Below are positions 8,403 to 16,203 of a stretch of DNA of 40,002 nucleotides, in pieces (the first letter of the stretch is position 1; the number at the start of each line of letters is the position of its first letter). Where the stretch lies: the IMG/VR virus record IMGVR_UViG_3300045988_166899; one strand, written 5' to 3'. This DNA is from a virus. The notes beneath the pieces are model-generated. The model was not told the DNA's origin and did no database searches. It was given only the letters and a program-made list of their open reading frames with translations. A program made the position numbers and the translations under genes.

Positions 8403-8557
8403 TTTCCAACGTCTACATGAAGCACGCCAAGGTATCACTGGAACGGCCTAAAAAGGTTGACCGGGCTAGAGTTGCTGCGGTCATCATCTTTATGTCGGTC
8501 ATGCTTGGGATCTGCATTCTTCCACAGATCTTGTACGGGATGGAGGCCATGCGATGA
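8372..8557 (+). CDS. small membrane protein
   Basis: 61 aa; hydrophobic segment VAAVIIFMSVMLGICILPQILY; coupled to next gene (ATGA). Confidence 0.4.
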   Translation: MAEKDGGDGMISNVYMKHAKVSLERPKKVDRARVAAVIIFMSVMLGICILPQILYGMEAMR

Positions 8558-9384
8558 AACCGGAAATGCGGCTCAATGAACCGCCAGAAACCTACCACGC
8601 CACCCGCGCCATCAGCAAAAGCGGCATGGACAAGCTCCGGCAGGCCCCCGCAAAATTCAAAGCTTGGATGGACGGAGTTACAGAAGAGGAAACGGAAGCA
8701 TTCCTTTTCGGTTCTGTTTTCCACTGCCTTGCACTCGAACCCGGAGAATTCGGCAAACGGTACGCCGTAAAGCAATTCAACGGCTCAACCAAGGCGGGCA
8801 AGGAAGAAACCGCGACCGCCAAGGCCGCAGGGCTGGAACTGGTGCCAGCCAAAATACACAATGCAGCTTCGGCAATGGCGGAATCCGTTCTGATTCATCC
8901 TTTGATCGGCAAGTTGATGACTGCAAAGGATAAACGGACGGAAGTCTCTATATACTGGAGCGAAACCGTGGACGGGCTCGAAATTCCATGCAAGGCCCGG
9001 CTGGACATGCTTGCCACCGTGCCGGGGTTCGGGCTCGTCGCCGTTGACCTTAAAAGCACGGACGACGCCAGCCCGGAAGGGTTGGCCCGCTCTGTACTCA
9101 AGTGGGGATATCACAGACAGGCAGTATGGTACCGCCGCGCACTCCGGGCCGTGGGCATGGACTCCAGCGTGTTCGTGCTCGTCGCCGTCGAAAAGACCGC
9201 CCCCCACCTTGTCACCGCCGCCAACGTCAGCGAGGCCGCGCAGCAAGTCGGACTTGAAGAAATCAAGGACGCACTCAGCACATACGCATCCTGCACCAAG
9301 TCCGGCCTCTGGCCCGGATACGTTTCTGAAATCATCGATCTTGACCTGCCCGAATGGGCTTACAAGAGGAGATTCGCCGCATGA
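8554..9384 (+). CDS. PD-(D/E)XK-family phage exonuclease (RecT partner)
   Basis: 276 aa; VAVDLKST / HRQAVWYRRAL...VFVLVAVEK resemble PDDEXK (YqaJ/Cas4-like) nuclease motifs; ATGA-coupled to recT. Confidence 0.65.
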   Translation: MKPEMRLNEPPETYHATRAISKSGMDKLRQAPAKFKAWMDGVTEEETEAFLFGSVFHCLALEPGEFGKRYAVKQFNGSTKAGKEETATAKAAGLELVPAKIHNAASAMAESVLIHPLIGKLMTAKDKRTEVSIYWSETVDGLEIPCKARLDMLATVPGFGLVAVDLKSTDDASPEGLARSVLKWGYHRQAVWYRRALRAVGMDSSVFVLVAVEKTAPHLVTAANVSEAAQQVGLEEIKDALSTYASCTKSGLWPGYVSEIIDLDLPEWAYKRRFAA

Positions 9385-10295
9385 GTCAACTTGTACAGCA
9401 GAACAATATCACAGACCTTATCAAATCGCAGATGCCCGCCATTGCTTTGGTGATGAATGGCACATCGGAAAGGGAGCGGAAAATCAAGGCAGAACGTTTT
9501 GCACGTATCTGTCTGACCGCTGTCCGTAAAAATCCAAAACTCATGAAGTGCTCGCAAGAAAGCTTTGCAGCGGCTCTTATGAACTGTGCACAGCTCAACC
9601 TTGAGCCCAATACGCCGCAGGAATTGGCATATCTTATTCCCTATAAGGATGAATGCCAATTTCAAATTGGATACAAAGGGTTTCTACAGCTCGTATATCG
9701 TTCTGGCATTGTCTCATCATTCAATGCCGATGTTGTATACAGGGCTGAGGTTGAAAACGGTATGTTCGAATACCGTAAAGGGATCACACCAACCATTACC
9801 CACAAAGTCGATCTACTGCATCCAGAAGCCCGCGAGGGAGAACTTATTGCGGCCTATGCAGCATGTACGCTCAAGGGCGGCGGTGAGGGGATGCTTCGAC
9901 TTGTTGATAAAAAGGACATCGAGCGCGCACAAAAGACTAGCGCCAGTCTCGCCGCGAACAAAAAGTATGGAAAGGACAGCCCGTGGATTTCTTCTCCAGA
10001 AGCCATGTGGATGAAGACAGCCATCAAACGTCTTGCTGCTTGGCTTCCTCAGACGGAAATGCTGGCAATGGCCGTTGACCTCGACGACAAGTCAGAACGC
10101 GGGGAATCCCAACTTGTTCTTCCTGAATTGACGCCGACAGATGGCCTAAACGCGGCACTCACGGGAAGCACGCCGGAAGCGCAGCCAGCCCCCGCCGTCA
10201 ATCTGATCACCTGTCCGAAAACTGAAAAACAGGTGAACGATTTTAAGTGCTTCGAATGTGACCAGCACGCCCAATGCCCCGCGTGGGCAGAATAA
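9381..10295 (+). CDS. recT: RecT-family single-strand annealing recombinase
   Basis: YLIPYKDECQFQIGYKGFLQLVYRSG typical RecT core; AGAGGA SD. Confidence 0.85.
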   Translation: MSQLVQQNNITDLIKSQMPAIALVMNGTSERERKIKAERFARICLTAVRKNPKLMKCSQESFAAALMNCAQLNLEPNTPQELAYLIPYKDECQFQIGYKGFLQLVYRSGIVSSFNADVVYRAEVENGMFEYRKGITPTITHKVDLLHPEAREGELIAAYAACTLKGGGEGMLRLVDKKDIERAQKTSASLAANKKYGKDSPWISSPEAMWMKTAIKRLAAWLPQTEMLAMAVDLDDKSERGESQLVLPELTPTDGLNAALTGSTPEAQPAPAVNLITCPKTEKQVNDFKCFECDQHAQCPAWAE

Positions 10296-10301
10296 CCACC
10301 C

Positions 10302-10331
10302 CGGCCCGGCTCACCACCGGGCCTTTCTTTT
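10302..10331 (+). terminator. intrinsic terminator GGCCCGG-ctcacca-CCGGGCC + TTTCTTTT
   Basis: read directly. Confidence 0.7.
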
Positions 10332-10342
10332 GAGGTAATGCC

Positions 10343-10636
10343 ATGAACAAATCTGATTTCGTCATAATGGTTCGAGCTTCCGACACCACGGACATCATGA
10401 CCTCAATCGAGAAGGCCGAATGTGTCGTCAATCAGGTATTGGATACGCTCCAACGGGCTATCGTGAAACATCATTCCCTGAAAATTCAGGGCTTCGGCGT
10501 GTTCGAAGTCGTGGACGTGCCCGCCCGCCAAGGTCGCAATCCGCGCACCGGGGAAAGCATTCCCATTCCCGCGCACAAGACCGTGAAGTTTAGGCCTGGC
10601 AAGGAACTGCGGGGGGCGGTGAACCGTGGACAGTGA
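10343..10636 (+). CDS. HU/IHF-family DNA-binding protein
   Basis: 97 aa; RNPRTGESIPIPAHKTVKFRPGKELR arm motif. Confidence 0.85.
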   Translation: MNKSDFVIMVRASDTTDIMTSIEKAECVVNQVLDTLQRAIVKHHSLKIQGFGVFEVVDVPARQGRNPRTGESIPIPAHKTVKFRPGKELRGAVNRGQ

Positions 10637-10874
10637 CGCCCTCCCCGAAATCAGACTAAAATGTCCTGATTTGGCATCGATAATTCCGGGGCGTCGTTTC
10701 CTCTACCGAGCCAAGGTAGGCGGCGAACGTCAAACCGTCACCGTTACGGCCTCCTGTGCCCCGTATCCCCGTGATTTCGGGAAAGGCCGCAAAGCTATGT
10801 ACGTCAACGTGTACGGCTACGAGGGGAAATGGACGGTTCCCGCAAGCAAACTGAGGATTGCGGAGAAAGTATGA
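10626..10874 (+). CDS. hypothetical protein
   Basis: 82 aa ORF overlapping neighbours. Confidence 0.4.
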   Translation: MDSDALPEIRLKCPDLASIIPGRRFLYRAKVGGERQTVTVTASCAPYPRDFGKGRKAMYVNVYGYEGKWTVPASKLRIAEKV

Positions 10875-11209
10875 AAGTAAAAAAATATGTCTGTCCGATA
10901 TGTCATAAAGAGTATCCTACATATCAGCAAGCTGAAAGATGTCTTGATGACTGTAAAGACAATGCTTCTGTGGAAGAATTTCTATGTAACTTTGAAGATC
11001 TACACGGATACGAGATCGACAGCATTATCGGAAAGTGCATAAGCTGCGAACACTGCGATGGTAAAGGTACATATTTCGCAGCTTGTCCGTTGAAAGCAAC
11101 CGGGAAAAAACGCGAAGGATGTGCAGCGTATATTCCCGCACACGATCTGCATATTGTTTGCTCTCGATATAACTATCTCCAAAAGATCGGACAGTTACCT
11201 CAATATTGA
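10871..11209 (+). CDS. Cys-rich (zinc-binding?) hypothetical protein, AT-rich
   Basis: MKVKKYVCPICHKEY...CISCEHCDGKG; GGAGA SD; local GC dip. Confidence 0.5.
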   Translation: MKVKKYVCPICHKEYPTYQQAERCLDDCKDNASVEEFLCNFEDLHGYEIDSIIGKCISCEHCDGKGTYFAACPLKATGKKREGCAAYIPAHDLHIVCSRYNYLQKIGQLPQY

Positions 11210-11219
11210 AGCACCCCAC

Positions 11220-11246
11220 GCCCCGCCCTCCCCCGGCGGGGCTTTT
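11220..11246 (+). terminator. intrinsic terminator GCCCCGCC-loop-GGCGGGGC + TTTT
   Basis: read directly. Confidence 0.6.
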
Positions 11247-11297
11247 CATACCCCAAACCGTGGGCCGCGCATACGAAGCACGCGGAAAGGGGAAAAC

Positions 11298-11558
11298 ATG
11301 AACTTCGGACAAGCTCTTGAAGCTTTAAAAGTCGACAAACGTGTTGCGCGGGCAGGATGGAACGGCAAAGGTATGTGGTTGCGTCTCGTTCATTCTGAAG
11401 ATGTTCGCACCTGTTCGGATTTCTGGGGCGAAGAAGTCAACGCCGATCCTCCCTGCCTGTTGCCATGGATCGGGATGAAAACAGCAGACTATCGTTTCGT
11501 TCCTTGGCTGGCGAGCCAAACGGACATGCTCGCGGAAGACTGGGAAATCATCGAATGA
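11298..11558 (+). CDS. tad2: DUF2829-family protein, Tad2-like (Thoeris anti-defense 2) candidate
   Basis: 86 aa; MNFGQALEALKVDKRVARAGWNGKGMWL... and C-terminal PWLASQTDMLAEDWEII match DUF2829 hallmark motifs. Confidence 0.65.
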   Translation: MNFGQALEALKVDKRVARAGWNGKGMWLRLVHSEDVRTCSDFWGEEVNADPPCLLPWIGMKTADYRFVPWLASQTDMLAEDWEIIE

Positions 11559-11644
11559 CGAAATGGGAAAGGCGGCTCACGTGGGTGTGGGTCGCCTTCT
11601 TCGTGTGGGTGGTCTGGATGGTGTGCAGGGGCGCGGCTGCATGA
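11555..11644 (+). CDS. micro-ORF, 29-aa hydrophobic peptide MTKWERRLTWVWVAFFVWVVWMVCRGAAA
   Basis: ATGA overlap with tad2-like stop; below ORF-track cutoff. Confidence 0.25.
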   Translation: MTKWERRLTWVWVAFFVWVVWMVCRGAAA

Positions 11645-11663
11645 ACAACGCGTGGGGTGAAAT

Positions 11664-11996
11664 ATGCTGACGGATAAGGAAAAAAGGTGGCTGGAATTTC
11701 GGAAAGACGTGTGCTTCCGGTGCAAGAAGCGCAGGCAGACATGTAGCCTTCAACTTCGTGATGATTGCCGGAAGGCTGGATACCCCATTCGTGATTTGGC
11801 GATGGTGATCCCGCCAGACTACCGCGACGCCGCCGAGTTCGAGGCGAGGGTGGCGGCAAGGCTAGCTGGAGCATGGGCAATCGGAGAGGACATGTGCTTT
11901 AACAACCACTGTCAACTCTTTGCCAAAGACCGTTGTACAGCCTGTTACCTCAAGAACGCCCGTATCGCCGTTGAAGAGGAGATGGACAATGAGTGA
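11664..11996 (+). CDS. Cys-rich small protein A
   Basis: CFRCKKRRQTC...CFNNHCQ...CTAC; SD GGGGTGA. Confidence 0.5.
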   Translation: MLTDKEKRWLEFRKDVCFRCKKRRQTCSLQLRDDCRKAGYPIRDLAMVIPPDYRDAAEFEARVAARLAGAWAIGEDMCFNNHCQLFAKDRCTACYLKNARIAVEEEMDNE

Positions 11997-12192
11997 AACC
12001 TCCCTTGAATCCATTATGCAGTGCTCGAAAGAGGCAATTGCGCGGGCGTATATGTGCCGGGCATATGTGACAGTTCCCATCGGGGAATGTCCCGACCCGT
12101 ATTGTCGGGTGAGAGGATGCAAGACATGCGGACGGGTAACGCCTCAAGCTTGGGAAGAAGTGTTGAACAACGCGCAGGAGAAGAGAGGATGA
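11989..12192 (+). CDS. Cys-rich small protein B (paralog of C)
   Basis: MSETSLESIMQCSKEAIARAYMCRAY...CKTCGRVTPQAW; ATGAGTGA overlap with A. Confidence 0.5.
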   Translation: MSETSLESIMQCSKEAIARAYMCRAYVTVPIGECPDPYCRVRGCKTCGRVTPQAWEEVLNNAQEKRG

Positions 12193-12512
12193 AGATAGAA
12201 GATCTTGAAAAGTATTCCAAACGGGCTCTGATACGCGCTTATCTATGCGCGCACAGCGAGGGACAGTCCGGGTGCCCAGCGGGAGGCGGTGAGCACTGCA
12301 AGATGATGAAGGGATGCCGAAAAGTCACTCCAGCTGATTGGTATAATGAGGACGTACTGCCAGAGTACAAAGACTTCCCCCCAACACAGCTTGCCGAACG
12401 ATGCCGCCGTGGTGCGTGCCCAGTGGAAAATGGCTGTTGCCCATTCTGGCCCACGCCTGACGGATGGTGTTGTCTTGTTACTGATCAAATGTGGGAGGAC
12501 ATAGCGGAATGA
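12189..12512 (+). CDS. Cys-rich small protein C (paralog of B)
   Basis: MKIEDLEKYSKRALIRAYLCAHS...CKMMKGCRKVTPADW; ATGA overlap with B. Confidence 0.5.
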   Translation: MKIEDLEKYSKRALIRAYLCAHSEGQSGCPAGGGEHCKMMKGCRKVTPADWYNEDVLPEYKDFPPTQLAERCRRGACPVENGCCPFWPTPDGWCCLVTDQMWEDIAE

Positions 12513-12853
12513 CCGCACAAGAATGGCTTGACGAACTGGAACGGCTTAGGAAGGCGGCGATCATGCCGCCCTATTATCTCAGGAAGAAACTCTTTTTTGG
12601 AGAGGATGAAGAAGAATACTACATCACCGATAAAGAAGAGCGCATCATCTGCCGGATGAAATACATGTCCACAGAACCGGATAACGCCGCATACATCGTC
12701 GCCGCGTGCAACGCAGTGCCGAGGCTGGTGGAGATGATAAAATACTTATCCGAAGAGGCAAGCGGGGAAGCTGGCGGTCCCGGAGAATGGTTTATGCGGA
12801 CGTCGGAAGAAGTCCTTCAAGACGCATATCAAGCTACGGAGCCGAAAGAATGA
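12509..12853 (+). CDS. hypothetical protein
   Basis: 114 aa; ATGA coupled both sides. Confidence 0.5.
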   Translation: MTAQEWLDELERLRKAAIMPPYYLRKKLFFGEDEEEYYITDKEERIICRMKYMSTEPDNAAYIVAACNAVPRLVEMIKYLSEEASGEAGGPGEWFMRTSEEVLQDAYQATEPKE

Positions 12854-13338
12854 TCACCCCCGAAGAACTCGACTACATCCGAACCGCCGCCATTGGCGAC
12901 ATGCTCGGAGACTCCACGGAGCTCGACAAACTCGGACCAGCAGCTACCATTTTTAGGCTGTGCCGGGAACTGGAACTATCGCGGAAACACGCCGTCACCA
13001 TGTCAGAAGTAGCAGCCGCAGCGTGGGGCGGGGAAATCCCGTCACCGTTGCCCGGTCATACTCACATAACCGAAGAAGACTTTTCCGAAAGATATAACTG
13101 CCCTTGGTGTGGCGGTTCTGGTCACATCGACGATTGCGATGAAGCAGACAAACAGGTCAAGGCTCAACTGGAACGGCTGGATCGGGAAGCGGATGTCCTC
13201 AGTATCTGGCTTGCAAACGCATATATCGACATTGATTTACTGCCCGAGATCGATTCCGGTGCTATGAATCCGCCGTTGCCTGAAGATGTACGGGAAGCCG
13301 CTCGCGAGGCAGTCAGAACAGATGAACTCCAAACATGA
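12850..13338 (+). CDS. hypothetical protein with CPWCGG motif
   Basis: 162 aa; ATGA coupled. Confidence 0.5.
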   Translation: MITPEELDYIRTAAIGDMLGDSTELDKLGPAATIFRLCRELELSRKHAVTMSEVAAAAWGGEIPSPLPGHTHITEEDFSERYNCPWCGGSGHIDDCDEADKQVKAQLERLDREADVLSIWLANAYIDIDLLPEIDSGAMNPPLPEDVREAAREAVRTDELQT

Positions 13339-14045: not shown

Positions 14046-14299
14046 AACATCTTCACACCTTGGGATTACGAAGTTCCCCGAATTATGCGACAGAACAAGA
14101 GAGGGCTGGCAATGGGCAGGCCCCATCCCCGAACCCCGCATACACAGAGTGCGTATTGATAGAAACGTTTGTCGGCATGGCCGAAGTGTGGCGCGTCTCT
14201 TGTAATAGAGTTGGATGTCCTGCAAAAACTCTGCTTTTCGATACACTCAAGGAAGCCATAGACGCTTGGAACGCCAAAGCCAAGCACGAACCGAAATAG
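13948..14299 (+). pseudogene. frameshifted DUF551-like + second Lar-like C-terminal segment spread over two frames
   Basis: frame 1: LEWTDEPPKVSGWYWYK (DUF551-like); frame 2: VSCNRVGCPAKTLLFDTLKEAIDAWNAKAK (Lar C-term-like); C7 tract 13984-13990 and GGCCCCATCCCCGAACCCC nearby. Confidence 0.3.
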
Positions 14300-14322
14300 C
14301 CCCGAAAGGGGCTTTTCCTTTT
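14298..14322 (+). terminator. intrinsic terminator AGCCCC-gaaa-GGGGCT + TTTTCCTTTT
   Basis: read directly. Confidence 0.6.
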
Positions 14323-14843: not shown

Positions 14844-15056
14844 ATGGAAACGACAATCTCGGAAATCCGCTCAATCGTACAGCGGCGTCGGGAGTTAGAG
14901 ATTGAAGACCAACGCCTCAACCAACGGTTTCTCGAACTGCTCGAACTCAACCAAGGGGCTAGAAAATCATCTCGTGATACGCTATCCCCCAAAGCAGGGA
15001 AGGCGTTTTTTGCTGACGTGAAAAGGAAATCCCATGAGCGTAGCAAAGCGCGGTGA
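14844..15056 (+). CDS. small coiled-coil protein upstream of integrase (role unknown)
   Basis: 70 aa; GGGAGGA SD; overlaps int start. Confidence 0.45.
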   Translation: METTISEIRSIVQRRRELEIEDQRLNQRFLELLELNQGARKSSRDTLSPKAGKAFFADVKRKSHERSKAR

Positions 15057-16092
15057 CGGCAGATGGGCCGTCAAGTTCAAGGATGAGGAGGGGCGCTGGA
15101 GACAGCGCTCTTTCCGTACTGAGGAAGATGCCCGGCAGTTCGATGCGGATTGCCAGTATGATGCGGTAGAAAACACACGCCTGACGCTGTTGGAGGCGGT
15201 GCTGGTGTACCTAAAAAATACCGAACACGCCGAGAACACCGTAGGAATTTATGAGTTCATTGTGTGCGGGCATGATCGAAAGAATGGGGAACACAGAGAG
15301 GGTCCAGCGGAGTTCCTTGCAAACAGATTCGTGGATACATTGACTCGTCGTGACCTCGAAACTGTACGTGAACGGTGCAGGAATGACGGCCTCTCAACAG
15401 CGAGTATCAATATCTATGTCGGAAAGATCAAGGCTGCACTCAGTTGGTGCGTTGAACAAGACTTACTCCATGAAAACCCTTGGGGGAAATATCGACAACT
15501 CCCCGGCGTAAGAAACAAGCCACGGACAGGAACATTGGAAGACTTCCACAAACTCTTTCCTGTGCTCCCGCCGTGGCTTCAATGGGCAGCAAAAACAGCC
15601 ATTGCCCTATGCTTACGTCCCGGCGTGTCCGAACTTTTCCGATTGGAATGGTCGGCATTCGACTGGAAGGCTAGAACCGTGAGCGTTTACATGCCCAAAG
15701 TAGATAGCACCAAAATGGTATTTCCACCAGAGGAATATCTTCAGGAGGCATGGGTACGCTACCAAGATGATGCGATAAACGGACAAAGTTTGGTTTGTAG
15801 AAATAGAAAGGGAGGACGTGTGAATAAAGGGCTTTATGAGATTGCATGGAGGCGGGCTTGCCGAAAGGCCGAAGTGTCTATGCCTATGTATGCCCTGCGA
15901 CATATCGCCGCGTCCGAGATGCTTTCAAGAGGCGTGGACATCGCCGCAATAGCTGCGCAGCTTGGGCACAAAGATATTACCACCACAGGTATTTTTTACA
16001 CACACGCTCTCGCCTCTTCCCAACGTCGAGCGGCGGCCGCACTCTCTTCTTGCACCAATTTGGTGCAGATTGGTGCGGTAAACGGCATCTAA
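15034..16092 (+). CDS. int: tyrosine integrase
   Basis: 352 aa; N-terminal arm-binding-like RGDGRWAVKF; C-terminal LRHIAASEMLSRGVDIAAIAAQLGHKDITTTGIFYTH catalytic region (R..H..Y). Confidence 0.9.
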   Translation: MSVAKRGDGRWAVKFKDEEGRWRQRSFRTEEDARQFDADCQYDAVENTRLTLLEAVLVYLKNTEHAENTVGIYEFIVCGHDRKNGEHREGPAEFLANRFVDTLTRRDLETVRERCRNDGLSTASINIYVGKIKAALSWCVEQDLLHENPWGKYRQLPGVRNKPRTGTLEDFHKLFPVLPPWLQWAAKTAIALCLRPGVSELFRLEWSAFDWKARTVSVYMPKVDSTKMVFPPEEYLQEAWVRYQDDAINGQSLVCRNRKGGRVNKGLYEIAWRRACRKAEVSMPMYALRHIAASEMLSRGVDIAAIAAQLGHKDITTTGIFYTHALASSQRRAAAALSSCTNLVQIGAVNGI

Positions 16093-16203
16093 AACAAACC
16101 TTATCAGTAACTTATGTAAAAACTTTGCTTTTTCCGCGAAAAAGCACATACATAATTTATTCCAATAAATAACGAACATCCTGCACCAAGCAGCTTGGTG
16201 CAG
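16051..16203. other. candidate attP: inverted repeats TGCACCAAtTTGGTGCA (16051-16067) and CTGCACCAAGcAGCTTGGTGCAG (16181-16203) flanking AT-rich core incl. palindrome GCTTTTTCCGCGAAAAAGC
   Basis: read directly; immediately 3' of int. Confidence 0.4.

Follow-up and report, generated by a model that had tools for sequence, protein, structure and literature searches.

The window analysed here, that is, the whole stretch of 40,002 nucleotides of the virus record IMGVR_UViG_3300045988_166899, contains a short open reading frame whose product had been proposed, from the letters alone, to be an anti-Thoeris sponge of the DUF2829/Tad2 family encoded within a small counter-defence islet. The locus therefore raises two questions: whether this protein is a Tad2 protein that captures the signal of type I Thoeris, and whether its neighbours also serve counter-defence. 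The gene, hereafter tad2, and its translation signal are as follows:

11298–11558, plus strand: tad2-like coding sequence, a domain-only member of the DUF2829/Tad2 family, from ATG to TGA (86 codons).
11286–11292, plus strand: Shine–Dalgarno-like element AAAGGGG, read from the sequence, 5 nt before the ATG of tad2.

The 86-aa product, as read from the window, is MNFGQALEALKVDKRVARAGWNGKGMWLRLVHSEDVRTCSDFWGEEVNADPPCLLPWIGMKTADYRFVPWLASQTDMLAEDWEIIE. It carries verbatim the two motifs that had been quoted as the hallmark ends of DUF2829 (MNFGQALEALKVDKRVARAGWNGKGMW...VPWLASQTDMLAEDWEIIE), and the AAAGGGG element bears out the claim that tad2 has its own Shine–Dalgarno sequence. An identical element is located ahead of tad2 in two related loci (L008 and L093). 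An in-frame GTG at 11121, giving a protein of 145 aa, was rejected as the start: the longer frame would overlap both a Cys-rich gene and a terminator, and M1 of the 86-aa form is where homologs as well as the Pfam model begin.

The family assignment was analyzed by employing profile and pairwise searches. The protein matched the Pfam family PF11195 (Tad2-like) with an E-value of 8.3e-27 and 94 bits, residues 1–85 being aligned to positions 1–73 of the 73-position profile, while the curated cut-off of this family is 25 bits. The original prediction had named such a search as its check, and the strong, full-length match is, at the level of sequence, far beyond chance. In line with this result, phmmer comparison with the sequences of the PDB matched all crystallised Tad2 proteins, namely SPO1 Tad2 (gp34.65, 8SME; E 9.5e-17, full length, about 46–48% identity), ModTad2 (9EIB; E 4.9e-16), HgmTad2/AcrIIA7 (8KBI; E 2e-14) and SptTad2 (8WJD; E 2.7e-14). 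PHROGs 872 and 1048, both without assigned function, were also matched.

At least 7,989 relatives were present among the 5.8 billion proteins searched, and PF11195 was carried by all of the best 120 of them. A contig-level genome search with the 86-aa protein recovered 252 relatives with a maximum identity of 64%; homologs of at most 60.5% identity were found in 293 phage records, labelled as hypothetical, DUF2829 or ‘anti-CRISPR protein’. The exact protein has already been deposited (DAT64538.1, ‘Protein of unknown function (DUF2829) [Caudoviricetes sp.]’), and near-identical deposited proteins are named ‘DUF2829 domain-containing protein [Bilophila wadsworthia]’. Membership in the Tad2 family is essentially certain, and tad2 is an ordinary member rather than a new type of system, the family being already flagged by Pfam, NCBI and AntiDefenseFinder-type tools. 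The gene is under purifying selection, with a pN/pS of 0.29 against the diverged variant of the related locus L089.

An AlphaFold2 (AF2) monomer model built on 115 relatives reached a mean pLDDT of 88.4 and a pTM of 0.76. Its predicted helices (H) and strands (E), H3–11, E15–18, E27–31, H40–43, E57–61, E67–69, H74–78 and E82–85, follow the order alpha1-beta1-beta2-alpha2-beta3-beta4-alpha3-beta5. The model displays the N-terminal helix, the five-stranded antiparallel sheet and the short helices in the beta2–beta3 and beta4–beta5 loops by which a Tad2 protomer is defined, and the same topology has been described for SPO1 Tad2 (Yirmiya et al., 10.1101/2023.05.01.538930). A Foldseek comparison with the PDB yielded 24 significant matches, all of them Tad2-family chains (TM 0.70–0.79), with SPO1 Tad2 in complex with 1''-3' gcADPR (8smf_B; TM 0.77/0.79) at the top. 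No non-Tad2 fold was found in the PDB by this search, the first match beyond the 24 chains having an E-value of 2.3. The predicted monomer fold, for which a structural comparison with Tad2 had likewise been proposed, thus matches Tad2 crystal structures and nothing else.

SPO1 Tad2 (gp34.65; PDB 8SME/8SMF/8SMG/8WJE) is the best structural match of the predicted model (TM about 0.78), with the same predicted order of secondary-structure elements. Both proteins belong to the same Pfam family, are of domain-only size (86 aa here vs. 89 aa), and have a short insertion (25 aa here vs. 24 aa) and a similar S-D-F motif. Their phages differ, SPO1 being a lytic Bacillus myovirus, whereas the phage studied here is a temperate phage of a Gram-negative anaerobe; moreover, a coupled 29-aa hydrophobic micro-ORF after tad2 is a feature of the present phage.

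The residues of SPO1 Tad2 that contact 1''-3' gcADPR or pocket waters are W25, N26, I63, T65, D67, H71, W73, S76, T78 and D79 (Yirmiya et al.). In a HMMER alignment with the SPO1 sequence taken from the supplement of that study, they correspond, in order, to W21, N22, M60, T62, D64, V68, W70, S73, T75 and D76 of the 86-aa protein. Eight of the ten are identical, the differences being M60 (I63 in SPO1) and V68 (H71 in SPO1); the replacement of the water-coordinating H71 by valine counts against a type I Thoeris sponge. Residues of both the M60 and the V68 type occur in experimentally active type I Thoeris inhibitors, with V-P-W in the Maridesulfovibrio bastinii and Nitrosospira homologs and M in the Ruminococcus callidus and Nitrosospira homologs (sequences in Supplementary Table 12 of Yirmiya et al.). 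Over 12 pocket columns, the protein is identical to the R. callidus homolog at 11 and to the Nitrosospira homolog also at 11. Its WLASQTDML stretch is identical in HgmTad2, where W21/N22/G23 even have the same numbering, and the W21A/N22A and S90A/T92A/D93A mutants of HgmTad2 lose gcADPR binding (PMC10680739). V68 pairs ambiguously with HgmTad2 V84 (HMMER) or N85 (MAFFT). Across the 115 relatives, the pocket positions show either no variation or a conservation above 90%. These motifs are imperfect predictors of activity, because the homolog of E. coli AIEC is active with S-I-G-D at the place of S-Q-T-D (Yirmiya et al., Supplementary Table 12).

Judged by sequence, the closest tested relatives are the prophage homologs of Nitrosospira sp. 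Nsp1 (55.6% identity), R. callidus (54.4%) and M. bastinii (48.7%), each of which experimentally inhibits type I Thoeris. The M. bastinii homolog shares with the 86-aa protein an identical 15-residue stretch, VPWLASQTDMLAEDW; M. bastinii belongs to the Desulfovibrionaceae, the bacterial family of Bilophila, so that a Tad2 member from this family is already validated. The insertion sequence of the three homologs is unlike that of the present protein, and identities of at most 56% to tested homologs are too low for ligand specificity to be transferred with certainty. In the original test of the family, type I Thoeris was inhibited by four of five diverse Tad2 homologs (Yirmiya et al.); the remaining one is an inhibitor of type II.

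The full-length PF11195 match, the Tad2-only fold matches and the conserved pocket residues together make ‘candidate anti-Thoeris sponge’, the label given in the original prediction, the right one. By homology to SPO1 Tad2, the 86-aa protein probably acts as a homotetramer that captures the type I Thoeris signal, and the conservation of the pocket points to 1''-3' gcADPR as its likely specific ligand. The gene would be transcribed early after infection or induction, as suggested by its position within a rightward recombination-to-integrase gene array. The protein would assemble, like SPO1 Tad2, as a homotetramer of two V-shaped dimers, with two pockets where non-dimeric protomers meet; W21/N22/G23 of the beta1–beta2 loop would line these pockets together with M60, T62, D64, V68, W70, S73, T75 and D76. 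These pockets would bind the TIR-made type I Thoeris signal 1''-3' gcADPR (= 3'cADPR) without degrading it, the ThsA effector would remain inactive, and abortive infection would be evaded by the phage. On this reading, some Bilophila hosts would carry a TIR-signalling defence.

Apart from V68, points that weigh against a type I Thoeris sponge include the terminator directly upstream of tad2, with no sigma70-like promoter before the ATG, and the variation in ligand among Tad2 homologs, which extends to CBASS, Pycsar and Thoeris types I, II and IV (PMC12393519). The latter leads to an alternative that we consider unlikely, in which the protein is a Tad2-family sponge with a different or additional ligand: His-ADPR (type II Thoeris), N7-cADPR (type IV Thoeris), cyclic mononucleotides (Pycsar) or cyclic dinucleotides (CBASS). 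Together, 18 tested Tad2 homologs blocked all five of these systems, and many of them blocked more than one (PMC12393519). ModTad2 (Myroides odoratus prophage; PDB 8V3E, 9EIB), of the same family, fold and size, is a His-ADPR and cUMP sponge without type I Thoeris inhibition, and its identity to the 86-aa protein (48%) is about the same as that of SPO1 Tad2 (48%). However, the canonical pocket of the protein resembles those of type I inhibitors, with V68, L71 and T75 where ModTad2 has A68, T71 and S75 (V-P-W-L-A-S-Q-T-D vs. A-T-W-T-P-S-V-S-D). The residues that contact His-ADPR are not given in the ModTad2 preprint.

With regard to cyclic dinucleotides (CDNs), HgmTad2/AcrIIA7 and SptTad2 (PDB 8KBI–8KBM, 8WJC, 8WJD) share family and fold with the protein and are dual gcADPR/CDN sponges. 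They bind CDNs via an insertion of 35–41 aa, with R31, S47, F70 and N85 as contacts, and SPO1 Tad2, with its 24-aa insertion, bound no cyclic oligonucleotide (PMC10680739). In the present protein, beta2 is separated from the core strand that follows by an insertion of 25 aa (residues 32–56), near the SPO1 length rather than that of the CDN binders. The HgmTad2 contact R31 is replaced by V31, an equivalent of N85 is absent or is P69, and S-D-F at S40-D41-F42 resembles the motif that surrounds F44 of SPO1, the residue by which the second pocket is occluded. The combination that marks dual-specificity Tad2 proteins, a 35–41-aa insertion with R31/S47/F70/N85-type contacts, was not found in the protein, and given the short insertion, V31, the missing N85 equivalent and the S-D-F motif, an HgmTad2-type CDN pocket is not expected.

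The genomic setting of the putative type I Thoeris sponge was also analyzed. Positions 1–55 of the window are identical to 39948–40002, and the window therefore corresponds to a circularly assembled phage genome of 39,947 bp. It is a complete circular temperate phage of Bilophila wadsworthia and encodes an integrase, RecT, Rha and tail proteins. The phage is common in gut metagenomes; the exact tad2 protein was present in 682 index blocks of an assembly collection, including contigs of about 39.9 kb that carry the same genes as well as integrated copies. In one integrated copy (L001), homology stops at window position 16146, 54 nt past the integrase gene (window 16093–16146; L001 12796–12960), and the sequence continues with tex, the product of which is annotated as Bilophila wadsworthia by exact protein look-up. 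The palindrome TGCTTTTTCGCGGAAAAAGCA at 16126–16146, at the end of homology between the free phage and the integrated copy, is likely the attP core. A megablast search of 10300–12600 against GenBank phages gave no match, and hence no close cultured relative at the DNA level. The main landmarks of the rightward array are listed below:

4990–5724: cI-like HTH protein, upstream of the rightward array.
8554–9384, plus strand: DUF3799 protein (Pfam, from syntenic gene calls).
9354–10295, plus strand: RecT.
10343–10636, plus strand: HU.
15034–16092, plus strand: integrase, at the end of the rightward array.

On the plus strand, the array runs in the order DUF3799, RecT, HU, an 82-aa gene, the Cys-rich gene, tad2, the micro-ORF, small Cys-containing proteins and the integrase; a leftward CP76/Dam array is also located upstream of it. 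That the array is an ‘early operon’ is a reasonable inference from this gene content. A moron-like unit separates the cI-like repressor from the early array; it comprises a tandem pair of matches to the Rfam DUF3800-VI RNA (RF02915; 37 and 55.7 bits) at 5866–5918 and 5925–5976, just upstream of an AT-rich DUF3800 gene (6034–6795; regional GC about 0.39). A second AT-rich patch (20001–21000, GC 0.384) occurs among the leftward structural genes and contains two small plus-strand ORFs, one of them with a weak zinc-ribbon match; it is followed by a Rha-family regulator at 21093–21830 (PF09669, E 1.6e-28).

Two hairpins, one on each side of the tad2 gene, were examined as terminators:

11220–11250, plus strand: intrinsic-terminator-like hairpin (stem-loop 11220–11242) with a TTTTCAT tail, called by the terminator scan.
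About 11570–11598, plus strand: stable 12-pair hairpin just past the tad2 stop, within the micro-ORF (dG -23.8 kcal/mol, z -4.61).

The upstream hairpin consists of GCCCCGCC, a 7-nt loop and GGCGGGGC, with eight G-C pairs, a dG of -18.9 kcal/mol and a z of -3.35; it is 100% conserved in L089 and also present in L008 and L093. The downstream hairpin is followed in the window by CUUCGUGU, a weak U-tail, which is the reason why the scan made no call there, while in L089 the same hairpin is followed by the T-rich TTTTTTCTTT. Consequently, of the earlier claim that tad2 lies between two intrinsic terminators, the upstream one (11220–11242) was confirmed, but the downstream one is a strong hairpin with a poor U-tail that the scan left uncalled. 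The scan found no sigma70-like promoter between 11242 and the ATG of tad2, and expression of the gene behind the upstream terminator therefore needs read-through, antitermination or an unrecognised promoter. G+C-rich hairpins with T-runs are present at three places in the rightward array (10303–10323, 11220–11242 and 14298–14313), which suggests antitermination or several transcription units.

The second question concerned the genes around tad2, of which the following were considered:

10871–11209, plus strand: Cys-rich 112-aa ORFan, a neighbour of tad2 on a present/absent cassette (10873–11209).
11555–11644, plus strand: 29-aa Trp-rich hydrophobic micro-ORF (MTKWERRLTWVWVAFFVWVVWMVCRGAAA), its ATG overlapping the tad2 stop as ATGA.
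11664–11996, plus strand: 110-aa Cys-containing protein, within the conserved block 11210–12191 that includes tad2.

The proposal of a counter-defence islet had drawn on the micro-ORF coupled to tad2 and on an adjoining AT-rich, Cys-rich gene. Both are as described: the ATGA overlap is present in the window, and the Cys-rich gene has a GC of 0.404 compared to 0.538 for the genome and encodes 11 Cys in 112 aa. The islet itself was not supported, since the Cys-rich gene is an ORFan without family match that is absent in some relatives, and neither the micro-ORF nor the 110-aa next gene has a functional match in Pfam/PHROG searches. Further, no meaningful match was obtained when tad2, the genes next to it and the AT-rich genes were scanned with PADLOC.

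The Cys-rich protein belongs to only four protein clusters among 5.8 billion sequences, and no Pfam match above cut-off and no PHROG or PADLOC match was obtained for it. A match to zf-C2H2_6 was sub-threshold (19 bits vs. 25). Because of this sub-threshold match as its only one and the four clusters, the gene was not accepted as evidence for an islet. The protein has a CxxC...CxxxC pair and a DnaJ-like CxxCxGxG motif (C59–G66). Its 337-bp AT-rich cassette is exactly absent, with contiguous junctions, in four of the eight near-identical relatives (L004, L006, L007 and L008).

For the 110-aa protein, neither a Pfam nor a PHROG match was found. Its 188 relatives are all unannotated and without a Pfam domain, the only named sources among them being Bilophila wadsworthia and metagenomic ‘Myoviridae sp.’, and its AF2 model was poor (pLDDT 64.5). 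It is the first in a run of small Cys-containing proteins that follows tad2 at 11664–13338 (110, 67, 107, 114 and 162 aa).

A block that starts at 11210, extends to about 11610 and comprises the terminator, tad2 and the start of the micro-ORF was present in all eight near-identical relatives, and in most of them similarity reaches 12191 and includes the 110-aa gene, L004 being fragmented beyond 11617. The position of tad2 is kept across three recombinase modules (Exo/RecT, AAA_24 and ERF/SSB). The spacer that separates the terminator from the ribosome-binding site of tad2 (11243–11285) is an insertion hotspot: in L093 (3813–4640) it holds three extra genes flanked by a ccgcgcatacgaatcacgcgg repeat, and in L089–L092 a 65-aa gene (L089 5738–5964). 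The latter, related Bilophila phages encode at the same syntenic position (e.g., L089 6001–6390) a 129-aa Tad2 variant with a 43-aa N-terminal extension (MTTLKELVEKLEWYGFTDKHGHH...), here behind an ERF/SSB/Gp157 module and not Exo/RecT. Thus, tad2 is a stable element in a zone of cassette flux. Such flux fits an accessory region, and nothing marks the neighbours as anti-defence genes.

Related loci retain the frame, the ATGA overlap and the hydrophobic character of the micro-ORF in 12 of 12 cases; the substitutions are conservative, and the pN/pS is about 0.36, from few changes. This conservation is confined to the present phage group. The idea of a hydrophobic micro-ORF as a family-wide companion of Tad2 was discarded, as one stood directly downstream in only 2 of 80 diverse Tad2 loci. 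It is a decidedly slim prospect that tad2 and the coupled 29-aa Trp-rich micro-protein work together as a counter-defence module of two genes that is particular to phages of Desulfovibrionaceae, or else that the sponge has a spectrum beyond 3'cADPR tuned to uncharacterised Bilophila TIR/nucleotide signalling. The mildly unusual features of the locus are limited to this lineage-specific coupled micro-ORF and to the cassette flux around tad2.

It is very improbable that the DUF2829 protein has a non-defence role in this phage, for instance as a binder of a host ADP-ribose-type metabolite, or that it is an inactive relic. The position of tad2 behind a terminator would suit such a role, but the purifying selection on the gene, the pocket residues conserved across the 115 relatives, the spread of the exact protein over the 682 index blocks and the activity of the five homologs of the original test, four against type I Thoeris and one against type II, argue otherwise. 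An AcrIIA7-type anti-CRISPR that inhibits Cas9 can hardly be credited: AcrIIA7 is a DUF2829 protein, the so-named PDB entries 8kbi and 9kzr match the 86-aa protein (E 2e-14 and 3e-13) and some phage records label homologs ‘anti-CRISPR protein’, but Cas9 inhibition by HgmTad2/AcrIIA7 and other tested homologs was not reproduced in vitro or in vivo (Li et al., PMC10680739), Yirmiya et al. (10.1101/2023.05.01.538930) argue for an anti-Thoeris family, and AntiDefenseFinder merges the Tad2 and AcrIIA7 names into one family.

The description of the Tad2 family dates from 2023; a survey of IMG, MGV and IMG/VR yielded 2,783 non-redundant homologs, and homologs occur in prophages of more than 100 species from six phyla. 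Literature searches on Bilophila with Thoeris, defence systems or anti-defence found nothing usable, and a paper on D. piger prophages makes no mention of Thoeris or Tad2. What is known of Tad2 is left unchanged by the present protein, which in practical terms is now correctly annotated and adds a candidate to those available for studies of specificity.

B. wadsworthia, a pathobiont of the gut, tolerates bile and reduces sulfite. If the candidate type I Thoeris sponge is active, a temperate phage of this species carries a signal sponge; TIR/Thoeris-type signalling immunity would then matter in human-gut Desulfovibrionaceae and would bear on phage host range there.
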